NCBI GenBank assembly: GCA_019358935.1 | Contig: JAHHIK010000068.1 | Span: 1-44,797, forward strand | Length of the DNA: 44,797 bases | Reading direction: 5' to 3' | Origin: Tolypothrix carrinoi HA7290-LM1 | Lineage (GTDB): Bacteria; Cyanobacteriota; Cyanobacteriia; Cyanobacteriales; Nostocaceae | Part shown: in pieces, positions 2,420 to 27,721 of the stretch | Numbering within the stretch: position 1 is the first letter of the stretch | Layout: each line of letters opens with the position of its first letter | Notes under the pieces: generated by a model | The model's input: only the letters and a program-made list of their open reading frames with translations | Databases searched by the model: none | Told to the model about the DNA's origin: nothing | Position numbers and translations under genes: made by a program

Positions 2420-5400
2420 ATGGCTATGGGCAGAAAACAGGGATGCGCGATCTTGTCTTGGGTAGTAGTTTTCGGGCTAGCAGGAGCGTTGAACGCATCT
2501 GCAAACGTGCAAGCTCAACAAGTAGTACCAGATACGAGTTTACCAGTTAACTCTGCGGTTACAGTTAACGGTAATAACTTTACAATTAATGGTGGAACTC
2601 AAGCAGGGGGAAATCTATTCCACAGCTTCAGTGAATTCTCTGTTCCCACCAACGGATCGGCTTTTTTCAACAATGCCCAGACGATACAAAATATCATTAG
2701 TCGGGTAACTGGTTCGTCTGCATCTAGTATTGACGGGATTTTGGGGGCAAATAGTCCAGCTAATCTATTTTTACTCAATCCTAACGGAATTGTTTTTGGA
2801 CCGAATGCCAGCTTGAATGTCGGGGGATCGTTTGTAGCAACTACGGCAAATGCAATTCAATTTGGCAATCAAGGTTTTTTTAGTGCTTCCAACCCGAATA
2901 ATCCTGCTTTATTGACAGTAAATCCTTCCGCGTTGTTCTTCAATCAAATTGCTGCTGCATCAAATCCGAATATCTCAACCACCGCTACTAATCTAAGTGT
3001 TCGTGATGGTCAGGGTTTGTTTTTAGTAGGTGGCAACATCAACATCGATAGCGGAAGACTAAACGCTTTTGGTGGTCGAGTGGAGTTAGGAGGATTAGCA
3101 GAAGTAGGATCTGTAGGCTTAAATTTGAGTGGTAACAATTTGAGTTTGAGTTTTCCGGATGCAGTAACGCAAGGTAATGTGTCACTGACCAATGGCGCTA
3201 TAGTTGATGTGAGTGCTGGCAATGGTGGTAATATTGCCATTAATGCAGCCAAAGCGATCGTATCTGGTGGTGCTAACTTAATTGCCCATACCTCCGGACA
3301 AGGAAATGCAGGTAGTATCGCGATCGCAGCGTCGGATGACATTTCTATAAATGGCAACAACACAGCTTTGGGTAGCCAAGTGTTGAATGATGCCACAGGC
3401 AACGGTGGCACGATTACCCTAAATGCACCAACAGTAAGAATATCAGATAATGCGGCTTTGATTGCCGACTCACAGGGCAGAGGTAACGGTAGCAAAATTG
3501 CCATTAATGCTGCCATTGTGACGGTATCTGATGGTGCTAGCATGACAGCAAACACTTTTGGACAGGGAAATGCAGGTAGTATCGCAATTACCGCTAGCGA
3601 TGACATCTCTATAAATGGAGATGGAACAACTTTAGGTAGTAGCCAATCATCAAGGGATGCCATAGGTAACGGTGGCACGATTACCCTAAATGCACCAAAA
3701 GTAATGGTATCTGGTGGTGCTAACATAGTTGCCCATACCCTTGGACAGGGAAATGCAGGTAGTATCGCGATCGCAGCTAGTGATGATATTTCTATAAATG
3801 GCAACAATACAGCTTTAAGTAGCCAAGTGTTTCCTCTTGCAGTGGGCAACGGTGGCACGATTACTCTGAATGCACCAAAAGTAATGGTATCTGGTGGTGC
3901 TAACATAGTTGCCCATACCTTTGGACAGGGAAATGCAGGCAGTATCGCGATCGCAGCTACGGATGATATTTCTATAAATGGCAACAACACAGCTTTGGGT
4001 AGCCAAGTGTTTCCTGATGCAGTGGGCAACGGTGGCACGATTACTCTGAATGCACCAATAGTAAGAATATCAGATAGTGCCGCAATGATAGCCGACTCAC
4101 AGGGCAGAGGTAACGGTAGCAAAATTGCCATTAATGCAGCCAAATTGACGGTATCTAATGGTGCTAACTTAGCAGCAAACACTTTTGGACAGGGAAATGC
4201 AGGCAGTATCGCAATTACCGCTAGCGATGACATTTCTATAGATGGGAGAAATACGGCGTTGGGTAGCCAAGTGTTCGGCGATGCCACAGGCAACGGTGGC
4301 ACAATTAACCTAAATGCACCAAAAGTGACGGTATCTGATGCTGCTGCTTTGATTGCCAATACCTCCGGACAGGGAAATGCAGGTACTATAACAATCGATG
4401 CCGCCAATTCTTTGTTGATAGATGGGCAAGGCACGGGTGTGGGTACTCAAGTGTTGGGCGATGCCACAGGCAACGGTGGCACGATTAACCTGAATGCACC
4501 AAACGTAACGGTATCTGATGGTGCTGCTTTGATTGCCAATACCTCCGGACAGGGAAATGCAGGTACTATAACAATCGATGCCGCCAATTCTTTGTTGATA
4601 GATGGGCAAGGCACGGGTGTGGGTACTCAAGTGTTGGGCGATGCCACAGGCAACGGTGGCACAATTAACCTGAATGCACCAAAGGTAACGGTATCCGGTG
4701 GTGCTGACATAGTTGCCAATACCGAGGCGGAAGGAGATGCAGGTACTATAACAATTGATGCCGCCAATCTGTTGATAGATGGGCAAGGCACGGGTTTGGG
4801 TACTCAAGTGTTGGGCGATGCCACAGGCAACGGTGGCACAATTAACCTGAATGCACCAAACGTAACGGTATCCGGTGGTGCTGACATAGTTGCCAATACC
4901 GAAGCGCAGGGAAATGCAGGTACTATAAGAATTGATGCCAAACAAGTATTTTTGGATGGAGAAGCAAGCGACGAACAACCTCATGGTATAGGCAGCGCCG
5001 TGTTTGGGTCAGCGAGTGGAAATGGCGGACAGATTGTCATTAACACAGGGTCACTTAATCTAACTAATAACGCTCTACTAATTGTTAGCAGCATTGGACA
5101 AAGAACTGCGGGACAGATAAAGATTGACTCTCGCTCTATTGAACTCGATAACCAGTCAACTATCCGCGCAACAACTGCATTTGGTAATGGTGGAAACATT
5201 TCCTTAACAGCCAGAGACTTGTTAGTTTTGCGTCGAGGTAGTCAAATTTCTGCGACTGCCGGTAATGATCGAGCAGGAGGTGATGGGGGCAACATAACCA
5301 TCAACGCGCCATTCATTATCGCTGTACCTAATGAAAATAGCGACATCTTGGCTAATGCTTTCACTGGCAGAGGTGGCAGAGTAGATATTACTGCAACAGG

Positions 5401-5911
5401 TGTATATGGGATTGAGTCCCGTGCCCAACCAACCTCACAAAGTGACATTACTGCTAGTTCTACATTAGGTGTTGCTGGTGTCGTCGAAATTAACACCCCA
5501 GATGTAGACCCCAGCCGTGGATTAATCGCCCTACCCGCGCTTGTAGTAAATTCACCAGAACTGCTTGCCTCGGCATGTAATGCTTTTATCGGCAAAGAAG
5601 GTAGTAGCTTCACCCTCACCGGACGCGGTGGTTTACCCCCCAGTCCTGATGATTTCCTTAGCGGTGATGTGGTGTGGTCAGATACTCGTAATCTCGCTAC
5701 TGCTAGCACTGTATCGAATTTGACGTTATATCGACGCGGTTTGAGAGCCTCAACTTCTGCTGCAAAAGTTCCGCCCAAAACAACAGAGCGCATTGCGATC
5801 GTACCTGCTACTGGTTGGGTATTTAACAATAAAGGCGAAGTAACGCTGATTTCTAATGTTAGTACTACTGAGCGTTTTGGGTCTGATGATGACACCTGCC
5901 TAAGACCCTGA
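2420..5911 (+). CDS. Filamentous haemagglutinin-family two-partner secretion exoprotein (TpsA-1) with beta-helix repeats
   Basis: Signal peptide, TPS domain (NLFHSFSEFS...NIISRVTG...NLFLLNPNGIVFG), ~60-aa GQGNAGSI...GNGGTITLNAP repeats, and the cyanobacterial C-terminal SFTLTGRGGLP...ATGWVFNNKGEVTL motif. Confidence 0.93.
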   Translation: MAMGRKQGCAILSWVVVFGLAGALNASANVQAQQVVPDTSLPVNSAVTVNGNNFTINGGTQAGGNLFHSFSEFSVPTNGSAFFNNAQTIQNIISRVTGSSASSIDGILGANSPANLFLLNPNGIVFGPNASLNVGGSFVATTANAIQFGNQGFFSASNPNNPALLTVNPSALFFNQIAAASNPNISTTATNLSVRDGQGLFLVGGNINIDSGRLNAFGGRVELGGLAEVGSVGLNLSGNNLSLSFPDAVTQGNVSLTNGAIVDVSAGNGGNIAINAAKAIVSGGANLIAHTSGQGNAGSIAIAASDDISINGNNTALGSQVLNDATGNGGTITLNAPTVRISDNAALIADSQGRGNGSKIAINAAIVTVSDGASMTANTFGQGNAGSIAITASDDISINGDGTTLGSSQSSRDAIGNGGTITLNAPKVMVSGGANIVAHTLGQGNAGSIAIAASDDISINGNNTALSSQVFPLAVGNGGTITLNAPKVMVSGGANIVAHTFGQGNAGSIAIAATDDISINGNNTALGSQVFPDAVGNGGTITLNAPIVRISDSAAMIADSQGRGNGSKIAINAAKLTVSNGANLAANTFGQGNAGSIAITASDDISIDGRNTALGSQVFGDATGNGGTINLNAPKVTVSDAAALIANTSGQGNAGTITIDAANSLLIDGQGTGVGTQVLGDATGNGGTINLNAPNVTVSDGAALIANTSGQGNAGTITIDAANSLLIDGQGTGVGTQVLGDATGNGGTINLNAPKVTVSGGADIVANTEAEGDAGTITIDAANLLIDGQGTGLGTQVLGDATGNGGTINLNAPNVTVSGGADIVANTEAQGNAGTIRIDAKQVFLDGEASDEQPHGIGSAVFGSASGNGGQIVINTGSLNLTNNALLIVSSIGQRTAGQIKIDSRSIELDNQSTIRATTAFGNGGNISLTARDLLVLRRGSQISATAGNDRAGGDGGNITINAPFIIAVPNENSDILANAFTGRGGRVDITATGVYGIESRAQPTSQSDITASSTLGVAGVVEINTPDVDPSRGLIALPALVVNSPELLASACNAFIGKEGSSFTLTGRGGLPPSPDDFLSGDVVWSDTRNLATASTVSNLTLYRRGLRASTSAAKVPPKTTERIAIVPATGWVFNNKGEVTLISNVSTTERFGSDDDTCLRP
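3280..4960 (+). repeat. Intragenic ~180-bp tandem repeats in tpsA-1 (about 9 units, some nearly identical)
   Basis: The 60-nt rows beginning at 4381 and 4561 are identical. Rows at 3721 and 3901 are nearly identical. Confidence 0.9.
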
Positions 5912-6091: not shown

Positions 6092-8521
6092 ATGGCTGGA
6101 AACTGGAGACACGGTTGCTGGCAGTTGGGGTTGGTGGTGGTTTTGGGAGTCCAAGGAGCGATCGCCTCCACCGTCAAAAATTGCGTCTTTGCTCAAGTAT
6201 TACCAGACACCACTTTACCCGTCAATTCTGCGGTTTTTTCTAGTGGCAACAACTTCACAATTACAGGTGGAACTCAAGCCGGAGGAAATCTATTCCACAG
6301 CTTCAGTCAATTCTCTGTCCCTACTAACGGTTCGGCTTTTTTTAACAATTCACAGACGATACAAAACATCATCAGTCGGGTAACTGGTTCGTCTGTATCT
6401 AATATTGACGGTATCCTCCGAGCAAATGGTACGGCTAATCTATTTTTGCTCAATCCTCAGGGGATTGTTTTTGGACCCAATGCCAGATTGAATCTCGGCG
6501 GTTCGTTTGTAGCAAGTACAGCAAGTAGCTTAAACTTTGCCGATGGCACGAAATTTAGTGCAACGACACCTGAAAATACACCCTTGTTAACAGTCAGTGT
6601 TCCCATTGGCTTGCAATTTGGCGAAAATCCCCAAAGAATTATCGTGCAGGGTAATGGTCAAGGATTGAGGAGGATGGAAGATCCTATAATTGATGATACG
6701 CAGAATGCTCTGCGAGTGCAACCCAATCAAACTTTAGCCTTGGTAGGTGGTGATGTAGCGCTCTTTGGTGGAACGCTAAAGACAGCTGGAGGACGAATTG
6801 AAATAGGCAGTATCGCTACACCGGGTTTAGTAAGTTTAATTCCTACCAGCAAAGGTTTTTCCTTGAACTATGATAACGTCAGCAGCTATGGAGACATCCA
6901 ACTATCTGGTGCGGCAGCAGTAGATGCTAGTGGGAATGGTGGTGGTGATATTCAATTGCGGGGTAGACGGGTGACGTTACAAAGTGGTTCCCAGATTGAA
7001 TCGAGTACATTAAATACTGCACCTGGGGGAACCTTGAGAGTAACTGCTTCAGAGTTAGTAGAAATAAGTGGCTCAACAGCAGATAATCCTCAAGATAATC
7101 GTCGGTTTCCTAGCTCATTGTCTACTGACAATCGAGAAGCCGGACAAATTCCGGGAGAATTGACAATCAATACTAGACAATTAATTGTCCGAAATGGTGC
7201 AAGAGTTTCCGCGAGTACTTTACGCACCGGTAATGGTGGAAATATCAATGTAAACGCTTCTGAATCTGTGCAACTGATTGGTACTGGTATCTCCCCAGGT
7301 GGACTGCGTTCTAGTGGATTGTCTGTTCAAACTCGCGGTGCGGGAAATGCCGGAAACTTAACCATTAATACCAGACAATTGATTATTAGGGATGGGGCAG
7401 AAGCATCAGCTTCTACTTTTGGTAGAGGTAATGGAGGTATTGTCAGCGTCAAAGCTTCTGATTCAGTTGAAGTAAGTGGCACTTCCGCAAATGGTCAGCT
7501 TCACAGTCGATTAGTTGCTGGAGTTGGCAATCCAGCAGATATACTTAGAGAAGGCTCTCCTCCCCCAGTTTCGGCTACGGGAAGAGGAGGAAATCTGGCG
7601 ATCGCAACTCGAAATTTGAATGTTGCAGATGGTGCGATCATTGCGGTAAGTAGTAGAAGCACTGCCCCAAATGCCCAAGGTGCAGGCAATTTAGAAGTAA
7701 ATGCCAAAAATATCCGCCTGAATAATCAAGGGACAATTTCTGCGGAAACATTCTCAGGTCAAGGTGGAGATATTACGCTAAAAGTTGAAGATTTTTTACT
7801 ATTACGGCGTAACAGTCAAATTTCTGCTACTGCGGGAACTGCCCAACAAGGCGGCAATGGCGGTAATATCACCATTGATGCAGCATTTGTAATTTCTGCT
7901 CCCCAAGAAAACAGCGATATTACAGCTAATGCTTTCAGCGGTCAGGGAGGCAGAGTTACTATCAATGCTACTGATATCTTTTTTCTAGAATCCCTGAGCC
8001 GAGATGAACTTTCGCGACAGTTGGGCGATCGCACTCAGTTAGACCCAAATCGCTTGCAAACAAATGATATCACTGCTATTTCCCAAGACAACCCCAACTT
8101 GAACGGTCAGGTAAATATTAATACCCCAGATATTGACCCCAGCCGAGGATTAATCGCCTTACCCGCAGTTGTAGTCAATTCACCAGGGCTGATTGCCTCT
8201 AACTGTAATGCCTTTATTGGCAAAAAAGGCAGCGAATTTACGATTACCGGACGCGGTGGTTTACCTCTTAGCCCTGACGATTTTCTCAGCAGTGATGTGG
8301 TGTGGTCTGATACTCGTTTGTCAGCAATTACCACAAAAAGGCAGGATTTGAATACTACCACTGCCAAGTTTGTTGCTCGTTCTCCAGTTGCGATCGTACC
8401 TGCTACTGGTTGGATATTTAACAACAAAGGCGAAGTAACGCTGATTTCTCATGCAGCTAATACTGTTCCTCAGGATTTCGGTGCGGCTACCTGTGCGGGT
8501 AATTTGTCAAGCTCAAATTGA
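6092..8521 (+). CDS. Second filamentous haemagglutinin-family TpsA exoprotein (TpsA-2)
   Basis: TPS domain (NLFHSFSQFS...NLFLLNPQGIVFG), GNGG/GNAG beta-helix repeats, and the same C-terminal TGRGGLP...ATGWIFNNKGEVTL motif. Confidence 0.93.
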   Translation: MAGNWRHGCWQLGLVVVLGVQGAIASTVKNCVFAQVLPDTTLPVNSAVFSSGNNFTITGGTQAGGNLFHSFSQFSVPTNGSAFFNNSQTIQNIISRVTGSSVSNIDGILRANGTANLFLLNPQGIVFGPNARLNLGGSFVASTASSLNFADGTKFSATTPENTPLLTVSVPIGLQFGENPQRIIVQGNGQGLRRMEDPIIDDTQNALRVQPNQTLALVGGDVALFGGTLKTAGGRIEIGSIATPGLVSLIPTSKGFSLNYDNVSSYGDIQLSGAAAVDASGNGGGDIQLRGRRVTLQSGSQIESSTLNTAPGGTLRVTASELVEISGSTADNPQDNRRFPSSLSTDNREAGQIPGELTINTRQLIVRNGARVSASTLRTGNGGNINVNASESVQLIGTGISPGGLRSSGLSVQTRGAGNAGNLTINTRQLIIRDGAEASASTFGRGNGGIVSVKASDSVEVSGTSANGQLHSRLVAGVGNPADILREGSPPPVSATGRGGNLAIATRNLNVADGAIIAVSSRSTAPNAQGAGNLEVNAKNIRLNNQGTISAETFSGQGGDITLKVEDFLLLRRNSQISATAGTAQQGGNGGNITIDAAFVISAPQENSDITANAFSGQGGRVTINATDIFFLESLSRDELSRQLGDRTQLDPNRLQTNDITAISQDNPNLNGQVNINTPDIDPSRGLIALPAVVVNSPGLIASNCNAFIGKKGSEFTITGRGGLPLSPDDFLSSDVVWSDTRLSAITTKRQDLNTTTAKFVARSPVAIVPATGWIFNNKGEVTLISHAANTVPQDFGAATCAGNLSSSN

Positions 8522-8676: not shown

Positions 8677-9570
8677 ATGACCATAGAACCGCAGCCAAAA
8701 CAAATATCCGTACTTGCAGCGTCTGTAGTCCACCCTAACTACCGCCCCCAAGCCGCCGACACCAGCATCGACGCAGATATTTACCTGTTTGTCCGATTGC
8801 GTCAACTATCGCTCAAGCAAAGGGTAGAAATATTCGTCACCCACGATCGCTCTGTTAAAAAACTTTGCCTTGCTGGTATCAAATGGCGGCAGAAAGATGC
8901 TCCAATAGAGAAAATTCGCCTGCATTTTGCCCATGCTGTCTTGGGGGAAAAATTCCCCTGTGGCTTCCAACCCACTAGTACTGATGAAACAATGTGGATT
9001 CAAGATTCCATCACTTTAGCTGGCGAACTCCACCAACTATTTGAATCGATAAATATCCCCTACTTCGTGAGTAGAGGTGTGGCGAGTTCCATTCACGGGG
9101 AAGCGCGTTCAACCCGCGATTTGGATTTGGTGGTGAGCGTACAAGGCGCGTCAGTTGATCTACTGGTGCAGACTTTAGAAGTTGCTGGCTTTTACTGTCC
9201 AGCCGGGGCAGTGGAGGATTTGAAGCTGGGGCAAGAAAGAATGCTGAACATTACCCATACCGAAACGATCGCCAATGCGGATTTATATCTAATGGACAAT
9301 TCCCCGTTTGCTGTATCGCAAATGTCCCGTCGGAGGTTGCTGGATATTGAAGGGATGCCCCCATTCTGGGTAGCGTCAAAAGAGGACACGATTTTACAAA
9401 AACTGCGCTGGGGGAAGGGAAATCAGTCAGAAAAACAATGGCGAGATGTCCTGGGGATACTCAAACTCCAAGCTGAGAGTTTGGATTATAACTATTTAGC
9501 GGAGTGGGCGGAACACTTGGAATTAGTTGATACTTTGAGTCAGGCGTTTACTGAGGCGGGGGTTTTGTAG
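8677..9570 (+). CDS. Fusion of a small helical partner domain and a Pol-beta-superfamily nucleotidyltransferase (TA/AbiE-like)
   Basis: C-terminal half has YFVSRGVASSIHGEARSTRDLDLV (GG..A..G..R.T.D.D type motif), EDTILQKL and KQWRDV. N-terminal half DTSIDADIYLFVRLRQLS...GIKWR resembles the short partner genes found upstream of such NTases. Confidence 0.7.
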   Translation: MTIEPQPKQISVLAASVVHPNYRPQAADTSIDADIYLFVRLRQLSLKQRVEIFVTHDRSVKKLCLAGIKWRQKDAPIEKIRLHFAHAVLGEKFPCGFQPTSTDETMWIQDSITLAGELHQLFESINIPYFVSRGVASSIHGEARSTRDLDLVVSVQGASVDLLVQTLEVAGFYCPAGAVEDLKLGQERMLNITHTETIANADLYLMDNSPFAVSQMSRRRLLDIEGMPPFWVASKEDTILQKLRWGKGNQSEKQWRDVLGILKLQAESLDYNYLAEWAEHLELVDTLSQAFTEAGVL

Positions 9571-9767: not shown

Positions 9768-11738
9768 ATGACTCAGGCTTGGAAACAGGTATGGATTCGA
9801 TTGGGATTATTGATGATTTTGGTGGAGGTAGAAGTTTTATCAGTAGCAAACAGTGTTTTGGCAGAAACCACAGTAGATACTACCACACCCGAAGCCCAAA
9901 GTACTCAGATTCAACTTGGGGAAATTTTAGAGTTAGATGCAGTTTCTGTGCCGTTCCCACCAGCATCAGTAAATACGGCTGAACTTCTCCAGCCAATTGA
10001 AGCTGCCCAAAACCCACCACCACCACAACCACTACAACTACCACCAGATATTGAGCGTCAACGAAACCAGAACAATTCCCCGGTTACACCAGATATATTT
10101 CGCCGACCAGATGAGAATAATCCGCCAACTTTACCAGAAAATATTCAGCCAATCCCACCACCAGAACAGTTGTTTCCTTCGCCTGTACCACCTACGCCGA
10201 CTACTCCAGAAGTAGTTCCCAATCAGTTTTCGGGAACTATTAGAATCGATCGCTTTAACGTAGTTGGCAGTACTGTCTTCAGCCCTCAAGAATTTGCGGC
10301 AGTTACCAAAGACTTTGTTAATAAATCGATTACCTTTGCTCAACTACTACAAGCTTCGGAAGCAGTTACTAAACTATACCGCGATAAAGGTTACATTACC
10401 TCCGGCGCCTTCATCCCCGCTAACCAAACCTTTAGAAGTAGGGGAAGTATTATCACCATTCAAGTTGTCGAAGGTGGTTTGGAAAGCATCCAAGTTAGCG
10501 GTCTAAAGCGACTTAATCCTAACTATGTCCGCAGTCGTCTTGCCGTAGCTACTGGCAAACCCCTGAACGTAAATAAACTTTTACGAGCGCTGCAACTGCT
10601 TCAACTCAATCCGCTGATTAAAAATATTTCTGCGGAACTGGCAGCTGGGGCAAATGCTGGTAGTAGTATATTAGTTGTCAGAGCCAGCGAGACAAAGACA
10701 TTCACGGCGGAAATTAGCTTAGATAATAATCGTTCCCCCAGTATTGGCAGCTTTCAGCGGCAAATTCAACTCAACCAAGCTAACTTGTCGGGATTGGGAG
10801 ATAATTTAAATGTTGCTTACGCCAACACTGATGGTAGCAACGATGTTGAGGCAAGTTACACCTTGCCGATAAATGCTTATAATGGAACGCTGCAATTTAG
10901 CTACAATTACACAAATAGCCGTGTAATTGAAGAACCGTTCGATATTTTAGATATTCAAGGAACATCACAAGACTTTTCCATCACATTGCGTCAACCGATA
11001 GTGCAAACCCCCAACGAAGAATTTGCTTTGGGAATAACTGCATCTCGTCGGGAAAGTGATGTTGGTTTTTTGGAATCTGTTATCGGAAGACGATTGCCAT
11101 TTGATTCACCGGGTGCTAGGGATGGAGAGACGCGCTTATCAATATTACGCTTTTTTCAAGATTGGACTAAACGCAATAGCCGACAAGTATTGGCAGCGCG
11201 ATCGCAATTTAGTTTTGGTATAGATGCTTTCGATGCTACCATTAATTCAAATGCACCCGATGGTCAATTTTTCTCCTGGCGAGGACAAGGACAGTGGGTA
11301 AGGCTTTTAGCTCCAGATACATTACTGTTAGTCCGTGCCGATGCTCAATTATCAGACAGAGCATTAGTGCCTTTAGAGCAGTTTGGTTTGGGAGGTCAAC
11401 GCACCGTGCGCGGTTATCGTCAAGATTTATTGCTAGTCGATAAAGCTTTTTTGGCTTCTATCGAATTAAGATATCCAATTTTGCGCGTTCCACAAGTGGG
11501 AGGTGTGCTACAACTTACTCCATTCGTTGATTTTGGCACTGGTTCGGGTGGTACTAGTACAGGGGTTGCTGAAGCTCCTAATAACCTCGCATCAACTGGA
11601 CTGGGGTTATTGTGGCAAAGCAACAGAGTCAATGCTCGTTTTGATTGGGGTATTCCTTTAGTTTCTGTAGAATCACGTAATAATTCTTTGCAAGAAGATG
11701 GTTTGTATTTTTCTGTAGTTTATACGCAACCATTTTAA
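9768..11738 (+). CDS. ShlB/FhaC/HecB-family TpsB outer-membrane transporter
   Basis: Pro-rich N-terminus, POTRA motifs (TKLYRDKGYITSGA), barrel motif EQFGLGGQRTVRGY and terminal Phe. Confidence 0.95.
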   Translation: MTQAWKQVWIRLGLLMILVEVEVLSVANSVLAETTVDTTTPEAQSTQIQLGEILELDAVSVPFPPASVNTAELLQPIEAAQNPPPPQPLQLPPDIERQRNQNNSPVTPDIFRRPDENNPPTLPENIQPIPPPEQLFPSPVPPTPTTPEVVPNQFSGTIRIDRFNVVGSTVFSPQEFAAVTKDFVNKSITFAQLLQASEAVTKLYRDKGYITSGAFIPANQTFRSRGSIITIQVVEGGLESIQVSGLKRLNPNYVRSRLAVATGKPLNVNKLLRALQLLQLNPLIKNISAELAAGANAGSSILVVRASETKTFTAEISLDNNRSPSIGSFQRQIQLNQANLSGLGDNLNVAYANTDGSNDVEASYTLPINAYNGTLQFSYNYTNSRVIEEPFDILDIQGTSQDFSITLRQPIVQTPNEEFALGITASRRESDVGFLESVIGRRLPFDSPGARDGETRLSILRFFQDWTKRNSRQVLAARSQFSFGIDAFDATINSNAPDGQFFSWRGQGQWVRLLAPDTLLLVRADAQLSDRALVPLEQFGLGGQRTVRGYRQDLLLVDKAFLASIELRYPILRVPQVGGVLQLTPFVDFGTGSGGTSTGVAEAPNNLASTGLGLLWQSNRVNARFDWGIPLVSVESRNNSLQEDGLYFSVVYTQPF

Positions 11739-17401: not shown

Positions 17402-17617
17402 TCATAGTATGCTTTGTGGTTGACAACCAGATGAAAGACCGATGAAACTGCCAATCAAAACTAAGATGCCAAACATCAACAATAAACCGCCGCTGACCTT
17501 AATAGCAACATTTCCATCAGGACGAACTTCTGACCGAGATTTATCGCTATTGATAACAAGAAAAATACCAGAGACAATTACGACAATTGCTCCCACCAAA
17601 AATTTATAGCAGTTCAT
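17402..17617 (-). CDS. Small two-TM membrane protein, probably co-transcribed with sodC
   Basis: Two hydrophobic segments, AAGG RBS-like sequence, and a start 26 nt after the sodC stop. Confidence 0.55.
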   Translation of the reverse strand: MNCYKFLVGAIVVIVSGIFLVINSDKSRSEVRPDGNVAIKVSGGLLLMFGILVLIGSFIGLSSGCQPQSIL

Positions 17618-18504: not shown

Positions 18505-20265
18505 CTACGCATCAATCACAACTTTGCCAATCGGGTAAGAAATGCAAGTGAGAATATAACCTTCTTGAACTTCGCTTTCTTCCAAACCTTCGGGTTCACC
18601 TTCTAACCTGACTTCTCCTTCTAGCTTGCGTTTCTTGCAGCTACCACAAACTCCAGCACGGCAACTACTGCGAATTTTCACTTTTTCCTGGTCAGCCAAA
18701 TTTAAGATGGGTTCTTCACCATCACAATCAACTTCTTTGCCTGACTTAGAGAAAACTACAGCAGTTTTTCCGGACGAGGTTGACTTGGGCAAGGTGGGAG
18801 TTGGTGTAGTGACTGATGCAGTTGCGGCAGCACGATCGCTACTGACATTTGATTCTGGAACAGATTGTGTAGACCAATTCCTCATCATATCCATGAAGCC
18901 AACAGCGCTTTTGACGCTTTGAGATGTGCTGCTAGCGACAGTTTCTTGTTTAGGCTCAACAGATTTGGGCTTTTTCTTTGGAGGTCCAAAGCTTTCTTCA
19001 TAGTAGTTTTGCATGGGGAAGCTGATACTTTCGAGCATTTGTTTGGTGCTTTCCATGAAGGTATCTGGTCCACATACATAAACAGTGCGAATTCGATAAT
19101 CTGGCGCAACAACTTGCAACATAGCTGGGTCAAGTCTGCCAGTTAAACTTAACCAACTATGACCAGGTTCAGTGCGAGTTGTAGAGACTGCTAGATGAAA
19201 ATTCGCATACCGCGCAGACATCATCTCTAGTTCATGCCGATAAATGATATCACGGGGGCTGCGAGCGCAGTGAAAAAAGATAATATCGCAATTAGCGCCA
19301 GTATCACATAACCACCGAGACATAGACATCATCGGTGTGATCCCACTACCCGCAGATATTAGCAAAAGTTTTTGCGATGGATTGGCGAAGCAAGTAAACT
19401 TACCCAAAGGTCCATTCAGCTTGATAATACTGCCTGGTGTAACGTTGTCGTGCAACCAGTTAGAAACTAGACCTTTCGGCGTTTCTGGTTCACAACCAAC
19501 AGGAGCGGGGACACGTTTGACGGTAATTTCTAAGGTGTGGGGACGTGAGGGAGTTGAGGAAATAGAATAGGAACGCGATATCTCTTCGCCATTGATTTCT
19601 AAATCAAGGGTGACAAACTGACCTGGTTTGTAACTGAACAACACCGGAGGATCTGCTACAAAGCGAAAGGTTCTCACATCATGTGTTTCATCAATAACAC
19701 CGATGCAGCGGACTGTTAAATCTCCTTTCGTCCAGCGTTGGAGGTCGGCGGGTTCTACCATCGCCAGTGGCATATATTCTTGGGGAGGGATGACAGGAGC
19801 GACAAATGGTGCTTCTACTGGTTTAGTCTCAACTTTTGGCTCCGGAGCAAGTCCGTTACTTATTTCTTGATTGTCTGTTGTTCTGCTTGTTTTTTCTACC
19901 TGTGGTAAATCTATTATCGTGTCTACGTTGGAACTTGTTTCTAGTGAACTAATTTGTACAATCATCAAAAAATATCTACCGACTTGAATTAAGTCGTTAG
20001 CTTTGAGAAGATAATCTTGATTGATTTGGGCGTTTTCGCCATTAAGCCGCGAACCACAGCTGCTAGCAAGGTCAGCATAATAATAATTTTCATTTTTTTG
20101 AGAAATTTTCCCATGCATCCGGCTGACTTCGGTGCCGTCTAAAACTAAATCACAGTTCAACAAGCGCCCAATATAACATTCCTGATTGAGTTTTGTCTCT
20201 AAGTCTAAATCTACTTCTTGCAGTTGCTCTGGCTTTTTTGGATCTATTACTTTGATTTTAATCAC
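18505..20265 (-). CDS. Forkhead-associated domain + FAD/NAD(P)-binding oxidoreductase + C-terminal 2Fe-2S ferredoxin (Hcr/PaaE-like reductase)
   Basis: FHA motifs (IGR...VSRMH...S.CGS), YKPGQF, RSYSISS, GLVSNWLH, SAGSGITP, VYVCGP, and CRAGVCGSC...ILTC. GTG start with AGGAGG RBS. Confidence 0.92.
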   Translation of the reverse strand: MIKIKVIDPKKPEQLQEVDLDLETKLNQECYIGRLLNCDLVLDGTEVSRMHGKISQKNENYYYADLASSCGSRLNGENAQINQDYLLKANDLIQVGRYFLMIVQISSLETSSNVDTIIDLPQVEKTSRTTDNQEISNGLAPEPKVETKPVEAPFVAPVIPPQEYMPLAMVEPADLQRWTKGDLTVRCIGVIDETHDVRTFRFVADPPVLFSYKPGQFVTLDLEINGEEISRSYSISSTPSRPHTLEITVKRVPAPVGCEPETPKGLVSNWLHDNVTPGSIIKLNGPLGKFTCFANPSQKLLLISAGSGITPMMSMSRWLCDTGANCDIIFFHCARSPRDIIYRHELEMMSARYANFHLAVSTTRTEPGHSWLSLTGRLDPAMLQVVAPDYRIRTVYVCGPDTFMESTKQMLESISFPMQNYYEESFGPPKKKPKSVEPKQETVASSTSQSVKSAVGFMDMMRNWSTQSVPESNVSSDRAAATASVTTPTPTLPKSTSSGKTAVVFSKSGKEVDCDGEEPILNLADQEKVKIRSSCRAGVCGSCKKRKLEGEVRLEGEPEGLEESEVQEGYILTCISYPIGKVVIDA

Positions 20266-20708: not shown

Positions 20709-23700
20709 TTAAATTTGGGTAACGGCAGCTATTTGCCCTAAACTTTGCTGATAGCGAACACTGAGCATTTTTAAGACATTCGTAGTGAGTAATGGGTCTT
20801 GTGAAAGTACTGCCTCGAAATCTTTTGCTTTGATAGCTAAAGTCCGAACTCTGACTTCACCTGCAACAACTGTTGCCGCATATTGGCTATGGGTCAACAC
20901 TTCTAGTTCACCAATAGTTTGCCCAGCCGAGATAGTCATACCTTTGCCTGTATTGCTGGGAAGTACTTTTGCCTCACCATCAATTAAAACTATCAGTTCA
21001 AAGGCAGGTCTTCCCTCTTTGCAGATTTCTTGTTGAGGATGATAAATGCGTACTTCGCTATTACGTGCCAGTTCAATCAAAGCATTTGCCTTGATATCTT
21101 GGAAGAAGCTGCTGTCATAAAGCCATAACAGCTTTTCTAAAGTTCCTACAGATTCGGTGATTGTATTAAGCTGCAAAGGTCGCATTTCCCACTGGACGTG
21201 GATAACTAAATCATCTCCACTGCTAAAACGAACCAAATCTCCGGATTTCAGTTGTTTTTGCTGGTCGTGAATGTGTTCTTTACCAATGCGTAGACCGTTG
21301 CTGCTTCCTAAATCTTTAACGCTGACTCCTTTTTCATCCACATAGAATATAGCGTGCTCTCGCGAAACACGGTTATCGGGAATAACGATATCGTTTTCGT
21401 GTCCCCGTCCAACTTGAATTGTTGGCTGTTGGAAAATCCGTTTTTCTGTGCGTTTGCTTGCTCTGACTTGAGCAATTAGAGTTGGTACATTACCAGACCC
21501 ATTTGCTTGGTGACTTTGACCGAGAATTATTTGTGCTGTTTCTTGCACGAGCCAATCTTTATTTTGCTTGGCATCTAGCAGTTGGCGAGCTGACGCAAAG
21601 GCAACAGAAGGATTAGACTGATGCAGGGCATAAAGACAGGCAGCTTGTACTAAAGGATCTACGTCTTGTAAAAGTGCAAGCAAAACATCATTAATTGCCT
21701 CTAGACGATGTGTGCGTTCACCACCTAAGCGAGTAGGGGCAGAGTTAAAAGAATAAGATTGTGTTTGTTGCTCTGAGTAATTGTTGTTGACATCAAGTTG
21801 TGTTGATATTGGTACAGGCTGAGTTAGCTGATCCTGTTGTCGTAATGAAGAGATTACTCTTGGACTCAAACGCTTTTGCCATCTTGACTGCTCATCGTTA
21901 GATTGCAGAATTTCTTCGATGACATTTGCTGCCAATACACCGATTGAGCGACCAATGTCGATCGCTGCCGATGAGTCTCCGAGCAATTCTAAGATGCGGA
22001 ATAACTGAGTGGTAATGAGTTTTTTCTTTTCTTGTACGGCTTCTCGCAGCAAGACATAAACGGGTGCGTGCGGGTTTGGCACTGAGTTATACAGCATTTG
22101 ACCATGCACGGCTAAATCTTGCAGTTGAGTTAATAAAACTTCAGCTTTCACAAGAAGTGGACCGTCTTGATTAAACATTTCTGAGAACACTTGCTCGTGT
22201 TCGTCTGGTGTAATCGCGTACTCTTGTCTCAATTCTCTAATTTGGTTTTGGCTGCGCTCGATCGCTTCTTCTAAGGGTGTGCCACTTTCTAGCAGTTGCT
22301 GAATTAGCAATTCTGATGCACGTCGATAGCCTTCTATCCGCAATTGAGTTTCTCGACTGCGTTGTTTTTGCGGTTCTAGAAGGGTGTAATCTTCAACTCC
22401 CAGTTCTGCTAAAACGGCGTAATGTTCCTCATCTGTTACGTTGAGTTCTTTCCGCATATCTTTGAGAACTTCCAAACTTCCTGCGGAACTTACTTTTCCT
22501 TCTTCTAAAGCTTCGCGCAATACTCCTTTATAAACTTGCACTCGATCTGCACGCTTAAAACCGGGCAGTACTTTGGCAAGAACATACACTTCATCGGGAA
22601 TTAAATCTTGCAGCGAACGTCCTTCAAGTAGCTTTGACCAATCTACTGCTAGTTTGTTGAGTTGACGACGCAAATTCATTGCCAGACTTTCGCGAGAATA
22701 ACGCTCTCGGCTGCGAGTTAAGCTGCGATACAGCCACAAGGTGCTGACTGTGACGATAATACCGTTCAATGCCAGGATACCCCAACCGGGCAGCAAGCTG
22801 ATATTCGGGCGTCCGCCAAACATAAAGAAGACGTTGAAGGAGACAAATACACACAAGACAAAAATGACATGCAGTACTTGTTCTTCGTTTAAATATTTGT
22901 TTTTTGAATGCAGATAAGCTCTATAGGCTTTTTCTAGGGCTACAGTGATGAAATAGCTGGCGATCGCAAAAACTGCCAATGTCAAAGGTGCTGCAATTAA
23001 CTTGGGAATGGGAATTGCTTGATTAAAAAAGTAAAATCCTGGATTGAAGAGTGTGCGTAATTGCCCTTCTTCATGAGTCCATGCACCAGAGTAATAGTAG
23101 TCCCAGTTGCCTGCGTACAGAAAGTAGAACCAATAAAATCCTAACATCAGACCAAAGTAACTATAAAAAAGTATCTTTTGGTCTGGTTTGGTGATTCCCT
23201 CCCAGTATGAACGCTCGGCGTCAATGTCTATACAAGGAGATTGACAGCTTACACAAGCACTTTTTTCTTGACCAGAACTATCGACAGTCCGACAAGTTGA
23301 CTGGGTGATGCTTTGGGGCGGTTTGTCGTGAGCATCAGTTCCTAATAAGCCCCGCGGACCTGTGTAAAACATTTGTACAGGTGCCATTGGGCAAAAATAC
23401 TGACACCAGCTTCTTCCTTTGTAGAGAAAGCCGACTGCAATCGCACTGAAGATGGTAAATAGCAGAAAAATCGCCATTGCGGTGCGATCGCCATTCACAA
23501 ACAAAATCCGAATATTCAAACCCAGGTAAAATAAACCTAATTGCAGATATAGAAAATTGCGTCCCAGCCAAGACTCTTTTTCTATACCTGCCAGTTCTAA
23601 GCGAACGTTACCTGTGGAGCTTACCACTTTACGCTTGCGTTGAATTCCTAAGGCGCGGGGAATTTGCGAGAAGAAATATAATGGACAAATCCGGCGCCAA

Positions 23701-23996
23701 AATTCATGTCCGAATACCAGCAAGATCGTGATTCCTATCGGCAGAACCATTGCCCAAAATATGCGTCCTGCCATACCATATGGCTGTTCGGGCAGACACT
23801 CACCCTGAACTTTGACGCAACTTGATGGATCGAGGTATTTCTCTGGATGGAGATGAAAAGGACTAATGATATTACTTGGGTCTGTGAACCTAATTGAAAT
23901 TGGATCGTAAAATAAAGAAAATATTAACGTCAGCCAGCCAATTGCTAACAGCCACCTGACGAGATGCATTTTTTTTTCTTCAACTTGACTAATCAT
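20709..23996 (-). CDS. Polytopic membrane protein: NapH/CcoG/NosR-like FeS region + helical/HEAT region + forkhead-associated domain + cyclic-nucleotide-binding domain
   Basis: About 8 TM helices; WRRICP, WCQYFCP and SACVSCQSPC motifs; HEAT-like LLQDVDPLVQAACLYAL; FHA motifs VGRGHEND...VSREHA...DLGSSNG; cNMP motif GQTIGELEVL...ATVVA. ATG at 23996 preferred over TTG at 24020. Confidence 0.85.
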   Translation of the reverse strand: MISQVEEKKMHLVRWLLAIGWLTLIFSLFYDPISIRFTDPSNIISPFHLHPEKYLDPSSCVKVQGECLPEQPYGMAGRIFWAMVLPIGITILLVFGHEFWRRICPLYFFSQIPRALGIQRKRKVVSSTGNVRLELAGIEKESWLGRNFLYLQLGLFYLGLNIRILFVNGDRTAMAIFLLFTIFSAIAVGFLYKGRSWCQYFCPMAPVQMFYTGPRGLLGTDAHDKPPQSITQSTCRTVDSSGQEKSACVSCQSPCIDIDAERSYWEGITKPDQKILFYSYFGLMLGFYWFYFLYAGNWDYYYSGAWTHEEGQLRTLFNPGFYFFNQAIPIPKLIAAPLTLAVFAIASYFITVALEKAYRAYLHSKNKYLNEEQVLHVIFVLCVFVSFNVFFMFGGRPNISLLPGWGILALNGIIVTVSTLWLYRSLTRSRERYSRESLAMNLRRQLNKLAVDWSKLLEGRSLQDLIPDEVYVLAKVLPGFKRADRVQVYKGVLREALEEGKVSSAGSLEVLKDMRKELNVTDEEHYAVLAELGVEDYTLLEPQKQRSRETQLRIEGYRRASELLIQQLLESGTPLEEAIERSQNQIRELRQEYAITPDEHEQVFSEMFNQDGPLLVKAEVLLTQLQDLAVHGQMLYNSVPNPHAPVYVLLREAVQEKKKLITTQLFRILELLGDSSAAIDIGRSIGVLAANVIEEILQSNDEQSRWQKRLSPRVISSLRQQDQLTQPVPISTQLDVNNNYSEQQTQSYSFNSAPTRLGGERTHRLEAINDVLLALLQDVDPLVQAACLYALHQSNPSVAFASARQLLDAKQNKDWLVQETAQIILGQSHQANGSGNVPTLIAQVRASKRTEKRIFQQPTIQVGRGHENDIVIPDNRVSREHAIFYVDEKGVSVKDLGSSNGLRIGKEHIHDQQKQLKSGDLVRFSSGDDLVIHVQWEMRPLQLNTITESVGTLEKLLWLYDSSFFQDIKANALIELARNSEVRIYHPQQEICKEGRPAFELIVLIDGEAKVLPSNTGKGMTISAGQTIGELEVLTHSQYAATVVAGEVRVRTLAIKAKDFEAVLSQDPLLTTNVLKMLSVRYQQSLGQIAAVTQI

Positions 23997-24174
23997 CTGT
24001 TGAGTGCTTCTCTGTAGCAAGATATAAAAAACAGTTATGATTTTGCACGCAAAGACGAGCGTTTTACCCGTCTCCTATGCAGAGTAGGTATAATAACCCA
24101 CTCTTTTGGAGCTTTCAAAAAATGAAAGCAAGAACTGAGATAATACTACAACTTCTGGGAATAAATTTCGGAAA

Positions 24175-25413
24175 TTACTGATTTTTGCAACATTCTATTA
24201 ATGGTGCATCGGCAATTCCTCCCAAATTTACCGATCGCAGCAAATCTTGCCAGTCAGTTTTTAATTCGGCATCATTAGGACGTTGACGCCTTAACTGTGC
24301 AATATTTGTCAAGGCATCGCTGAAAGAGCCAGACTGTGCATAGATATTAGCACGCTCCCGCATATTTGAAGACGCTAAATCTCTTTGCAATTTTTCATCG
24401 GGTGCTAGCCGAACAATTGAGCCTTGTACAACTAAATCTCCGCTGCGCTCTTTTTCATCGCACACCGCTGAGAAAAACCAACGGTAAGTTTTGCCAACCT
24501 TCAGTAATGATGTTGAATTAGCAGGTATTACGCTGACAATTCCTGATTTTGCTGGAGTTTTAAAAGTTGTTTTATTAATTACCTCCTGGTTTTCATCTTG
24601 TATAACTAGTTCTAGTGCTTGAGCATTAGTTTGGGGAACGTAGAAAAATAATTGAGGATTAGAGAAAGTTGTTATTTGAGGAGTTTCTAAGGGTGCAAGA
24701 GCAATAATTGGTTGATTGCTGGATGTGCAGGAACTTCCTCTTCTAGTTCCTGCTGATACCCGTCTACTTGGTATGCCTAACGCTGCTGGAGGAGAAATTT
24801 TATAAGAGTTTCTTCTATTATTGACGCTGTTATTGACGGCAGGACTGGTACTGACGCTGTTATTGACGGCAGCACCGGACTCGTCTACCCTAGCACCAGA
24901 CTGTTGATTATTACCGAAACCGATTACAGTTTCGTTGTCTGGTAGTTTTTGCGTCCGCGTTCCTGCGGGGGTCAATCGTCCGGGTTGCCCGAAGTCAAAG
25001 TTAGCGGGTATATATAAAATATTGCGTCTTGTTTTGCTACCTAGTCGGCGATCGCGTTCGATATAACTTTTAATATTGCCAATAGCGATCGCTGCATATG
25101 TATCCCCAGGTCTTGCCTGTAATGCCTGTTGGAAATAATTTAAAGCAGCTAAGTAATTTCTTTGCTTTGTGGCATTATAACCCTGTAGCATATACTTGGT
25201 ATAGTTGCTTTGGCTAGATTTCGCTTGCACCAGCATCATTGTGGAAACATCTGCTGGCATTTTCATCGAGCAGCCAGCAGGTAATACCAAGGCAACAATT
25301 GCCACAAGGCTAATATATTTTGTCCAGGTTTGGTATTTCACGGCTGATGCGCTACTAGTAGCGCTACTGATAGTCTCTATTTTACTACAAAATTGGTTAA
25401 AGTGATTCCGCAA
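24175..25413 (-). CDS. TPR + DUF928 domain protein (exported or membrane-anchored; start uncertain)
   Basis: Hydrophobic segment ending LPAGC, one TPR, AGTR motifs, and DUF928-like PQLFFYVP...LKVGKTYRWFFSAVCD...DWQDLLRSVNL. Confidence 0.85.
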   Translation of the reverse strand: MRNHFNQFCSKIETISSATSSASAVKYQTWTKYISLVAIVALVLPAGCSMKMPADVSTMMLVQAKSSQSNYTKYMLQGYNATKQRNYLAALNYFQQALQARPGDTYAAIAIGNIKSYIERDRRLGSKTRRNILYIPANFDFGQPGRLTPAGTRTQKLPDNETVIGFGNNQQSGARVDESGAAVNNSVSTSPAVNNSVNNRRNSYKISPPAALGIPSRRVSAGTRRGSSCTSSNQPIIALAPLETPQITTFSNPQLFFYVPQTNAQALELVIQDENQEVINKTTFKTPAKSGIVSVIPANSTSLLKVGKTYRWFFSAVCDEKERSGDLVVQGSIVRLAPDEKLQRDLASSNMRERANIYAQSGSFSDALTNIAQLRRQRPNDAELKTDWQDLLRSVNLGGIADAPLIECCKNQ

Positions 25414-25481
25414 TTACACCTGTGAAAATATCAAGGTGTAATTCCCGCCCTTTTTTGACAACTTTCGGTCAGATATCCGAT

Positions 25482-25781
25482 TCAATCATTTCGGCGTTGC
25501 CATTGTTGCGGATCGCGTTTAATGTGAAAACAGGCAACAATCACAATTTTATCTTCTTCAATTAGGTAAAAAATTCCGTAGGTAAATCGACGAATCAAAG
25601 CGCGTCGAATTTCTCGATGTACCAAAGGATAACCTGAAAGATTGCGTCCCACAGAAGCTAGACAACTATCAACTGCACGTATAAACTCAAAACCTAATCC
25701 GGGATTGTGTTCTTCATACCACTCAAAAGCCTCTTCGATATCAAGTTCTGCCTCTGGGCTAATCAGTAATTTATAGTTCAT
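25482..25781 (-). CDS. RelE/ParE-family type II toxin
   Basis: AELDIEEAFEWYE...GLGFEF...IRRALIRRFTYGIFY...IVACFHIKRDP. Confidence 0.9.
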   Translation of the reverse strand: MNYKLLISPEAELDIEEAFEWYEEHNPGLGFEFIRAVDSCLASVGRNLSGYPLVHREIRRALIRRFTYGIFYLIEEDKIVIVACFHIKRDPQQWQRRND

Positions 25782-25783
25782 AA

Positions 25784-26008
25784 TCAAAAACCCAGTCTTT
25801 GCTTCATGTGTTCCCAGCTTGAACCCTGCATTGGGTTTTGGTAGTATTCTTCTAAACGTCGGTCTAATTCTTGCTGTTGAGCTTCACTGACACGAGCTGC
25901 CGCAGGTGTGGTGAGGATGCTATCCCATAAATCCTGGGCAAGTTGTATGCGCTCGGCTACACTTAATTGGGAAATCTCAACTTTCAATAACGAATGCATA
26001 CTCATCAT
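25784..26008 (-). CDS. Putative addiction-module antitoxin (TIGR02574-like)
   Basis: LSVAERIQLAQDLWDSI...ELDRRLEEY...SWE, immediately upstream of the ParE-like toxin. Confidence 0.9.
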   Translation of the reverse strand: MMSMHSLLKVEISQLSVAERIQLAQDLWDSILTTPAAARVSEAQQQELDRRLEEYYQNPMQGSSWEHMKQRLGF

Positions 26009-26263
26009 ACCAAGGTTTAATATATCTGAATATTCTACCTCTATCGAGAGGAGGATAGGCTATCTGCTCAATTAAAAGCCAAAGAAGCAAACAAGCAAGC
26101 GATCGCGCACCTGATGTAATTTTGGCGACAAGATGGGGTTAAGAGCAGCAGCTAATTCCCGCGAAAATGGGTGGTTTGCTTGACTTGCTTTTAGTTCTCA
26201 GTGTCCATCCAAAACCAACCAAACGCGCTGGGTAAAGTTTGTAGAACAATTAACTACAGCACA

Positions 26264-27721
26264 ATGAAATTTTTTGCCTTCCGCTCGATTCGCACCCGGA
26301 TTATGGCTGGGGCAACACTATTAAGTATCGCCCTCGTAGGCTCAGTAGTTTCGGTTTGGGCAAAAACTGAGAGTCACCTTTACCGTCAGGAAAAGCTGAA
26401 TGAAGCCAAGTTATTTTCTAAGGTATTAAGTACTACTTTGTTTAGCAATCATCTGGCAGAAAAAAACTGGAGTCAAATGCGCCTCAATTTAGATTTGCTG
26501 ATGAAGGAAAACGAAGACTTTGTATATATTCTGGTGTCTGATGCGCGGATGGACAATCAGATTGTCGGTGCATCCCCCGGAGATTTCCAAGGACAGTATA
26601 TTCCCGATGTTGTTCCTTTAGAGGTGACAAATACTGCACTAAATGTATCGGACAAGCCCAGTATTGTAGATACATTTGTTCTGCGGGATATTCAGTTTTT
26701 GGGCATGATGCGGGCGAAAAAAGGCGAACGCGTGATGGAAGTAGCTTCGGATATTCAGACGGCAACAGGTAAAAAAATTGGCACGCTGCGGTTTGGTATT
26801 TCCTTACGACCAGTGGATCGCGTTGTTGCTTATGCGGTAAATCAAGCGCTGATGGTAGGCGCTGTAGGACTTGGGATTGGTTTGCTGTGTGCGTATATTC
26901 TTGCAAGGCGTTTGAGTAAGCCGATACTGCAATTGCAGATGAGTGCAATCAAGATTGCTGCCGGGGATTTGCAACATCGCGCTCAAATAGACAGTGTAGA
27001 TGAAATTGGTATCTTGGCGGCATCATTTAATGAAATGACGGCTGCATTGCAAGGATCGTTTAGTAAATTGCAAAGAACGTTAGAATCGTTTGAAAGATTT
27101 GTACCAAATAAGTTTATCAGCGCGATCGCTCCAGATGGAATCGAAAATATTCACGTAGGTGTAGCTGTAAAGCGTAACATGACGATTTTGTTTTGCGATA
27201 TTCGCGGTTACACTTCAATGTCTGAGGTGATGACACCATTAGAAACCTTTGCATTTTTAAATGATTACCTGGCTTGTATGGGAAAAGCAATAGATGAAGC
27301 CGGCGGATTTATTGATAAGTATATTGGTGATGCGATTATGGCACTGTTTGATGATGAAGCTACAGATGGGGCACTTAAGGCAGCGATATTAATGCAGCAA
27401 GCGCTGTTAAAGTTTAATTATGAGCGAACGCAAAACAGTTTACCAAAAATCGCTGTCGGAATTGGCATTCATCGCGGCGAAGTAGTCATGGGCACAGTCG
27501 GTTTTGCTTGTCGCATTGATTCTACGGTAGTGGGTGATGCAGTAAATATCGCTTCGCGCATTGAAGGACTGACTAAGCAGTATAATTGTGGAATTTTAAT
27601 CACAGAGTCGGTGGTGAGTAGTTTACAATACCCCGAATTATTCGCGTTGAGATTAATAGATAATGCAGTCAAGGTGAAAGGTAAAGATGAAGCGATCGCC
27701 TTGTACGAACTTCAGATTTAA
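26264..27721 (+). CDS. Membrane class III adenylate cyclase with periplasmic sensor and HAMP domain
   Basis: Two TM helices, HAMP (DEIGILAASFNEM), and motifs ILFCDIRGYT, KYIGDAIM and STVVGDAVNIASRIE. The Lys/Thr pair suggests ATP specificity. ATG at 26264 preferred. Confidence 0.92.
   Translation: MKFFAFRSIRTRIMAGATLLSIALVGSVVSVWAKTESHLYRQEKLNEAKLFSKVLSTTLFSNHLAEKNWSQMRLNLDLLMKENEDFVYILVSDARMDNQIVGASPGDFQGQYIPDVVPLEVTNTALNVSDKPSIVDTFVLRDIQFLGMMRAKKGERVMEVASDIQTATGKKIGTLRFGISLRPVDRVVAYAVNQALMVGAVGLGIGLLCAYILARRLSKPILQLQMSAIKIAAGDLQHRAQIDSVDEIGILAASFNEMTAALQGSFSKLQRTLESFERFVPNKFISAIAPDGIENIHVGVAVKRNMTILFCDIRGYTSMSEVMTPLETFAFLNDYLACMGKAIDEAGGFIDKYIGDAIMALFDDEATDGALKAAILMQQALLKFNYERTQNSLPKIAVGIGIHRGEVVMGTVGFACRIDSTVVGDAVNIASRIEGLTKQYNCGILITESVVSSLQYPELFALRLIDNAVKVKGKDEAIALYELQI

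Follow-up and report, generated by a model that had tools for sequence, protein, structure and literature searches.

The locus and its redox module

The stretch of DNA analysed here, called the window below, is contig JAHHIK010000068.1 of the cyanobacterium Tolypothrix carrinoi HA7290-LM1 (44,797 nucleotides, positions 1-44,797 of the forward strand), in which a two-gene redox module lies among the genes of an envelope cassette. Two TpsA genes, a TpsB gene and a TPR-CHAT gene on the plus strand converge on a minus-strand run that encodes, in order, a TPR-DUF928 protein, a membrane protein with iron-sulfur (FeS), FHA and cNMP domains, an FHA-reductase-2Fe2S protein, the superoxide dismutase SodC, a 71-residue membrane protein and a CHASE2 Ser/Thr kinase. 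All genes and strands named in a preliminary description of the locus were recovered from the open reading frames (ORFs) and a Pfam scan, with intact motifs in the CHAT protein, the kinase, SodC and an adenylate cyclase. The co-oriented order that it gave, with redox genes between DUF928 and CHASE2, also held, and by comparison with other genomes this arrangement goes beyond chance.

The FeS membrane protein (20709..24020, minus strand; start probably at Met9) and the FHA reductase (18505..20265, minus strand) are the core of the module. Pfam, alignment and modelling give the former about eight helices, seven conserved Cys, and helical, HEAT-like, FHA and cNMP-like domains. The helices are long in the AlphaFold model of residues 10-560 (pLDDT 84.8), hydropathy gives seven segments, and the seven Cys (112, 206, 210, 243, 256, 259 and 263) are 97-98% conserved in 108 homologues, arranged as one ICP motif (112), one CxxxCP motif (206-211) and one C243..CxxCxxxC motif (256-263). 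Because the FHA and cNMP domains are cytoplasmic and the number of helices is even, these Cys ligands are predicted to face the cytoplasm. NOX proteins and ferric reductases have a membrane domain with two pairs of haem-binding His. In the FeS protein the conserved His (19, 105, 231, 384 and 533) lie at helix ends or in soluble parts, alignment and model show no in-membrane His pairs of the haem type, and no ferric-reductase Pfam match occurs in the window. The transmembrane electron-transfer chain of the preliminary description is thus unsupported.

Foldseek searches with 551- and 366-residue models returned nothing at E 0.001, and the best structural Z scores were 6.5, from the small helical domain at the C-terminus, and 4.9, from the membrane part, for which no listed family rose above background. 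PDB sequence searches with the FeS protein were empty, and an Atlas search with the FeS part returned only unnamed 4Fe-4S clusters; a weak Atlas lead (0.77) puts an EF-hand on members of the family. The family comprises 356 clusters at E up to 1e-30, and its members also carry cNMP-like and FHA domains. These data define an uncharacterised membrane FeS family that matches nothing in the PDB, has a dedicated reductase and bears signal-reading domains that can be swapped. No description of the FeS-reductase module was found in the literature searched, which included few subscription journals and no supplements.

The reductase consists of an FHA domain, FAD (PF00970) and NAD(P)H (PF00175) domains, and a C-terminal 2Fe-2S domain with four Cys, as identified by Pfam, NCBIfam and motifs; two of its linkers (105-172 and 431-500) are rich in Thr. 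Its best hidden Markov model (HMM) is GbcB, at 381.6 bits against an equivalog cut-off of 500. It has the domain order of the GbcB, Hcr and PaaE FAD-NAD-2Fe2S reductases, but differs from them in its N-terminal FHA domain and in its partner, which is an FeS membrane protein rather than an adjacent Rieske oxygenase or Hcp; Pfam found no oxygenase gene in the window. The phosphate-binding residues of FHA domains are GR, SxxH and NG. All are present in the FHA domain of the membrane protein, and in that of the reductase GR and SRxH are kept and Cys replaces Asn. GR and SxxH are retained in 76 of 81 reductases, and the four with a degenerate FHA domain are all orphans, away from the FeS gene.

Of 301 genomes of the phylum, 39 encode the FeS domain and 11 the reductase; all but one of these 11 also have the FeS gene. 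Neighbourhoods were compared between two sets of cyanobacterial loci, 77 that have an FHA reductase and 42 in which the FeS gene is present but no FHA reductase is in view; both were drawn from genome searches plus 80 of 591 relatives. Four duplicates, non-cyanobacterial or truncated rows, and flank-only stretches were left out, and the control group of 42 holds three imperfect rows (L041, with a reductase 7 kb off, the fusion L135 and the broken L151). Reductase and FeS gene occur together in 65 of the 77 loci; of the other 12, five start too near a contig end and one is 7 kb off after an inversion. Of 150 listed cluster representatives, six have the FeS domain and the reductase in one chain, three of them with PilZ in between, and the two are also fused in L135 and L231. 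The FeS protein and the FHA reductase are one unit, and electrons very probably flow between them. The single chains of FeS domain, PilZ and reductase (P0104, P0106 and P0117) are a possible version of the module gated by cyclic di-GMP.

Other settings were also seen. At L232:6286-8955, L233:7661-10384 and L123:10001-12540 large synthase-like genes lie next to an FHA-reductase that either forms one chain with an MFS transporter or has one encoded after it. In L159 and L167, which are methanotroph records, an FHA-reductase follows a gene that looks globin-like by eye and is accompanied by two more reductases, and the planctomycete locus L175 has multihaem cytochromes, an FHA-reductase, further FHA proteins and a kinase. 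Another genome of the same genus (L088, G001:C7) carries an additional, diverged module, whose FeS gene is interrupted by transposase-like ORFs and which has a cyclase downstream.

The envelope cassette and its kinase

The first plus-strand gene, tpsA1 (2420..5911; PF05860, E 3e-60), encodes a secreted, filamentous haemagglutinin-like protein with 60-residue internal repeats, visible as 180-bp repeats in the DNA, and TpsA2 (6092..8521, plus strand; PF05860, E 3e-70) has a two-Cys C-terminal tail in common with it. TpsB (9768..11738, plus strand) is an outer-membrane transporter with POTRA and ShlB domains by Pfam. The TPR-CHAT protein (11827..14712, plus strand) is a caspase-like protease with a hydrophobic N-terminal leader and an intact His-Cys dyad, in the motifs HLATHG (821-826) and LSACST (870-875). 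On the minus strand lie the CHASE2 membrane receptor Ser/Thr kinase of the Hanks type (14932..17058), the core of the system, with a kinase domain at about residues 440-708 and its Gly loop, Lys, HRD, DFG and PPE motifs all present, and the exported TPR-DUF928 protein (24175..25413 by Pfam and ORF; start probably near 25341).

This TpsA/TpsB/CHAT/DUF928/CHASE2 cassette is ordinary in the organism. A whole-genome profile search gave 24 TPS, 6 TpsB, 19 CHAT, 11 CHASE2 and 8 DUF928 matches, and the families cluster again on contigs C62, C83, C106 and C129, and partly on C73. The FeS protein, the reductase and SodC are each single-copy in the genome. The new part of the locus is the two-gene redox module, not the envelope cassette. 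As far as the accessible text of the sources goes, CHASE2 is found beside DUF928 (PMC5587647), CHASE2 kinases are already catalogued (PMC2176072), no ligand of CHASE2 is known (PMC10581220), and EACC2-caspase-CHASE2 proteins have been described (PMC8195603). These proteins and the cyanobacterial CHASE2-DUF928-CHAT-TPS cassette use the same envelope gene families as the window. The window differs from the former because its CHASE2 protein is CHASE2 plus kinase only, with no caspase domain by Pfam, and from the latter because the redox module stands between DUF928 and CHASE2. A caspase-CHASE2 fusion of the EACC2 kind does follow the redox module in L153.

Of the 77 reductase loci, 24 have genes of the cassette no more than 4 kb away, against 2 of 42 loci without the reductase and 169 of 3745 background points. 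In window-type loci TPR-CHAT and TpsB usually follow the kinase, and DUF928 or TpsA precede. The CHAT gene is convergent with the kinase gene in most relatives and genera and is lost from the locus in L035, L036 and L223, and the DUF928 gene adjoins the FeS gene in most relatives, in either orientation. A second clade carries CHAT-CHASE2/DUF928 or TpsA/TpsB near the module (L128, L129, L142, L153, L154 and L235). The locus in L235, another clade, repeats the window layout with TpsB, TpsA, a haloperoxidase and a CHASE2 histidine kinase.

Three smaller genes accompany the cassette in the window. A small TPR protein (1355-2053, plus strand) recurs by TpsB/TpsA in L035, L040, L100, L221, L227 and L228 and may belong to the cassette. 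The 297-residue ORF between TpsA2 and TpsB (8677..9570, plus strand) has no Pfam or NCBIfam match and no counterpart labelled in related loci; it has one paralogue, on contig C7 of the same genome, and is likely a recent insertion outside the system. The two-helix membrane protein of 71 residues (17402..17617, minus strand; ORF and hydropathy) is an accessory whose gene occurs in genus g1 and genome G023.

The CHASE2 kinase is consistently linked to the module. Within 121 genomes of the family, a window-type reductase (63-100% identity) occurs in 19, from 11 genera; in 17 of these the reductase contig also carries a CHASE2 kinase, in one case as a 5′ stub where the contig ends, and the other two break at contig ends. 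Kinases at least 66% identical to that of the window number 16, all in these 19 genomes. The linked kinases form one clade (FastTree support 99; 24 of 36 rows), and the kinases of 11 other genomes have no reductase within their 1.5-kb flanks. Kinase and reductase are present or absent jointly in genera g13, g155 and g156. Over the whole locus set, 33 of 77 reductase loci have a kinase no more than 4 kb away, compared with 1 of 42 loci without the reductase and 223 of 3745 intergenic points in genome G000; the kinases near anmK in L094, L114 and L125, counted among the 33, are probably incidental.

Other lineages pair the module with other kinases. A kinase-transmembrane-WD40 protein is encoded directly upstream in 12 loci of another clade, a kinase with a transmembrane part and a periplasmic-binding-protein domain downstream in two loci, a kinase-TPR protein in one, and a convergent kinase in L234. 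At least three clades thus use differing kinases, with gaps to the module of 3-120 bp. The preliminary description had allowed that its idea would fail if the redox genes were unlinked in other genomes; neighbourhood comparison instead found the CHASE2 link in 11 genera and other kinases in other clades.

For comparison, mycobacterial PknF-Rv1747 and PknH-EmbR are examples of a Hanks kinase with a co-encoded FHA effector. There, as in the window, a receptor kinase gene adjoins an FHA-fused effector. Here, in contrast, the effector is a two-protein flavin/FeS chain, each protein with its own FHA domain, and different clades use different types of kinase. In the accessible text of PMC2176072, the number of FHA domains in a genome correlates with that of kinases. 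Judged from these sequence features, it seems fairly probable that the kinase controls the module via the FHA domains, which would give CHASE2 kinases, a family with no known ligand, a concrete and assayable candidate output.

Peroxide enzymes, cyclic nucleotides and the possible output of the module

Enzymes of reactive oxygen species (ROS) lie within 4 kb in 20 of the 77 reductase loci (nine SodC, ten vanadium haloperoxidases and one haem peroxidase), against 1 of 42 loci without the reductase (a di-haem peroxidase). SodC, haloperoxidases and haem peroxidases share superoxide or H2O2 chemistry. The ten haloperoxidases, identified by PDB matches, belong to two families of six and four; further cases at L235 and L236 are outside the 20, and such neighbours occur on at least four branches of the tree. 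As background, one haloperoxidase family is found in 15 of 301 genomes, and SodC in 37 of 301 and in 1 of 37 genomes of the window's family. The window SodC (17644..18213, minus strand; PF00080) is an accessory Cu/Zn superoxide dismutase (SOD) with intact metal ligands and a lipoprotein-type leader, of a kind that the accessible part of PMC8346466 treats as rare in cyanobacteria. Haem peroxidase matches in L056 and L071 were discarded as probable accessory-domain matches.

The FAD and NAD(P)H dehydrogenase domains by which NOX enzymes are recognised are found here on the partner gene, and are fused to the membrane part in some homologues. NOX/RBOH enzymes and the red-algal mbb locus, which combines three vanadium bromoperoxidases with a NOX according to the accessible text of PMC12115072, share with the module an NAD(P)H/FAD dehydrogenase with a membrane partner, signal-reading domains, and clustering with vanadium haloperoxidases. 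Unlike NOX/RBOH, the module has no ferric-reductase haem domain and has FeS clusters instead, and its ROS output is putative.

The preliminary description also proposed a cyclic AMP (cAMP) input from an adenylate cyclase next door. The Arg of the phosphate-binding cassette is the mark of cNMP binding. It is present in 6 of 49 homologues, L051 being one that bears it, and is replaced by Tyr in the window protein and its lineage. The HAMP class III adenylate cyclase (26201..27721, plus strand, divergent; motifs intact) is separated from DUF928 by a ParE toxin and TIGR02574 antitoxin (25482..26008, minus strand; Pfam and NCBIfam), so it is not the immediate neighbour of the run; this pair is a passenger, its type lying within 4 kb in 1 of 77 reductase loci. 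A cyclase is found within 4 kb in 3 of the 77, none of them window-type, and apart from this genome just two close relatives, L039 and L101, have the window cyclase in the vicinity of the locus. With the Arg lost and the cyclase unlinked, a cAMP arm is unlikely in the window system, and the cyclase is probably outside it. The 22 FeS proteins that bear an FHA domain fall into 18 in which this domain is canonical and the cNMP Arg is missing, and four that keep the Arg while the FHA domain has decayed; two of the four have a cyclase nearby. This retention suggests that cAMP control may exist in other branches.

We propose, with a probability of about 0.45, that the locus is a common envelope cassette plus a conserved pair of redox genes, the module, which likely serves as the output of the kinase, with ROS as its likeliest product. 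Conserved kinase adjacency in 11 genera, together with other kinases and peroxide enzymes in distant lineages, indicates that the module is likely switched by phosphorylation; by its sequence features, the FeS protein and the reductase would form a membrane redox machine, possibly a ROS generator. The CHASE2 kinase would phosphorylate threonines, both FHA domains would read the phosphothreonines, and this reading would switch on an electron path from NAD(P)H through FAD and 2Fe-2S to 4Fe-4S. The likeliest product of that path would be superoxide or H2O2. With predicted cytoplasmic Cys and no haem wire, electrons would meet their acceptor on the cytoplasmic side of the membrane, or get to it by way of a membrane quinone or metal site. 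SodC in the window, and vanadium haloperoxidases in other lineages, may handle or use the product. That ROS are the purpose of the module and not a by-product is a tentative suggestion, with somewhat less than an even chance. If ROS are made, cyanobacteria would have in this module a regulated means of producing superoxide or H2O2, and their haloperoxidases a supply of peroxide. It is tempting, if speculative and on balance unlikely to be right, to see a bacterial counterpart, similar in function but made of unrelated components, to the oxidative burst of receptor kinases and RBOH: surface receptor kinases would use FHA domains to switch on a haem-free flavin/FeS membrane oxidase, which would feed SOD or vanadium haloperoxidases for chemical defence, with cNMP or PilZ gating in other branches.

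Several points weigh against our proposal. All support for the mechanism is genomic, from gene content, motifs, linkage, fusions and neighbours. By the tree the window-type linkage has one origin, so its 11 genera are not independent, and the 33 kinase loci collapse to about 3-4 origins, with kinship inflating the ratios. No kinase lies within 4 kb in 44 of the 77 reductase loci, and no ROS enzyme in 57, some loci being short. The Asn of the reductase FHA domain is kept in 17 of 81 rows and absent in 64. Peroxide enzymes do recur by the module, which fits a ROS role, but among the 11 genera only g1, g161 and g177 have SodC at the locus and the other 8 do not. SodC was not found in genomes G009 and G023, nor a haloperoxidase in the window's genome, nor a NOX-type domain in the window by Pfam. 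Several haloperoxidases have no evident leader, and that of L124 lacks the catalytic motif searched. Finally, FHA-less FeS-HEAT-cNMP homologues lie at a nitrate/bicarbonate-type four-gene ABC operon in six loci (L047, L048, L063, L064, L070 and L076; one divergent, the rest directly downstream), which points to a wider, non-ROS role.

As to transcription, the intergenic gaps of the minus-strand run are 154, 443, 291, 26 and 343 bp by ORF coordinates, and with gaps of 154-443 bp a single transcript is not evident in the window. The 291-bp gap holds a 7-bp tandem repeat, and the corresponding gaps are only 55-180 bp in several related loci. Promoter and terminator scans of the window were at chance level (28 against 24.8 ± 5.7, and 17 against 12.6 ± 3.6). 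RNA-library contigs of relatives (about 90% identity, word share 0.05-0.08) cover the FeS and reductase genes in four of four runs, which were chosen by their match to the window itself, and cover the kinase and CHAT/TpsB by short pieces.

The same kinase-gated wiring could instead have a reductive housekeeping output, in which the FeS protein would reduce a metal (Cu) or a quinone as a CcoG/NapH-like enzyme, with SodC and the peroxidases as clients or mop-up; we regard this as unlikely, if plausible. CcoG and NapH polyferredoxins have two CxxxCP and two 4Fe-4S motifs. The FeS protein shares a CxxxCP motif, a Fer4_5 match and a membrane anchor with CcoG/RdxA/FixG and NapH, its Cys are predicted to be cytoplasmic, and weak HMM likeness to CcoG is found in 36 of 90 family members and to NapH in 23 of 90. 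It differs in having one ferredoxin-type motif, about eight helices and its own reductase, its family bears FHA, cNMP and PilZ appendages, and its TIGR02745 (CcoG) score of 13 bits is far under the cut-off of 316.7. The ABC transporters beside FHA-less homologues and the Cu requirement of SodC would suit a reductive role, as would the cupric reductase activity of CcoG, a protein with two Cys-rich motifs in the accessible text of PMC8267372. Against it, the clustered neighbours include no recurrent gene for a Cu ATPase or for oxidase assembly. Vanadium and haem peroxidases both require H2O2, not Cu, and this common need of the peroxidase neighbours also argues against a reductive output.

We find it quite unlikely that there is no direct wiring, and that an autonomous redox pair came to lie, in a single event, in an island of envelope or stress genes and was inherited en bloc, its kinases and peroxidases being co-regulated neighbours. 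The single origin of the window clade, the long gaps in the window, the many reductase loci without any kinase, the cassette without redox genes in at least four other places of the window's genome, and the shuffled gene order (an inversion in G023, DUF928 in both orientations) would all be expected of such an island. Yet separate clades have differing kinases within 120 bp of the module, a kinase is near only one control locus, kinase and reductase are present or missing together within three genera, and the FHA domain decays in orphan reductase copies. The full chain of the preliminary description, in which a contact signal would pass through CHAT proteolysis and CHASE2 to phosphorylation, joined by cAMP, and then drive electron transfer across the membrane and an oxidative burst, is improbable: the intact CHAT dyad and its convergence with the kinase in most genera, the export leader of SodC, and the four Arg-keeping homologues, two near a cyclase, fit it, but the Arg is Tyr in the window lineage, the cyclase is not conserved, the membrane protein has no haem ligands, and CHAT is missing from the locus in three relatives.

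Other features of the window

A remnant of a Cas12f1/TnpB-like zinc finger lies at the start of the contig (85-372). Downstream of the cyclase, a 313-residue ORF (27874-28815, plus strand) has no Pfam or NCBIfam match and looks glycosyltransferase-like by eye, and a 21-bp tandem repeat of 11.4 copies follows at 29869-30108. The minus strand encodes a Cyanovirin-N-like protein with a CVNH lectin domain (36022-36474). A hybrid regulator/sensor kinase of 1333 residues (39503-43504, plus strand) combines receiver, winged helix, Hpt, GAF, PAS and HisKA domains and contains in-frame 8-bp repeats.

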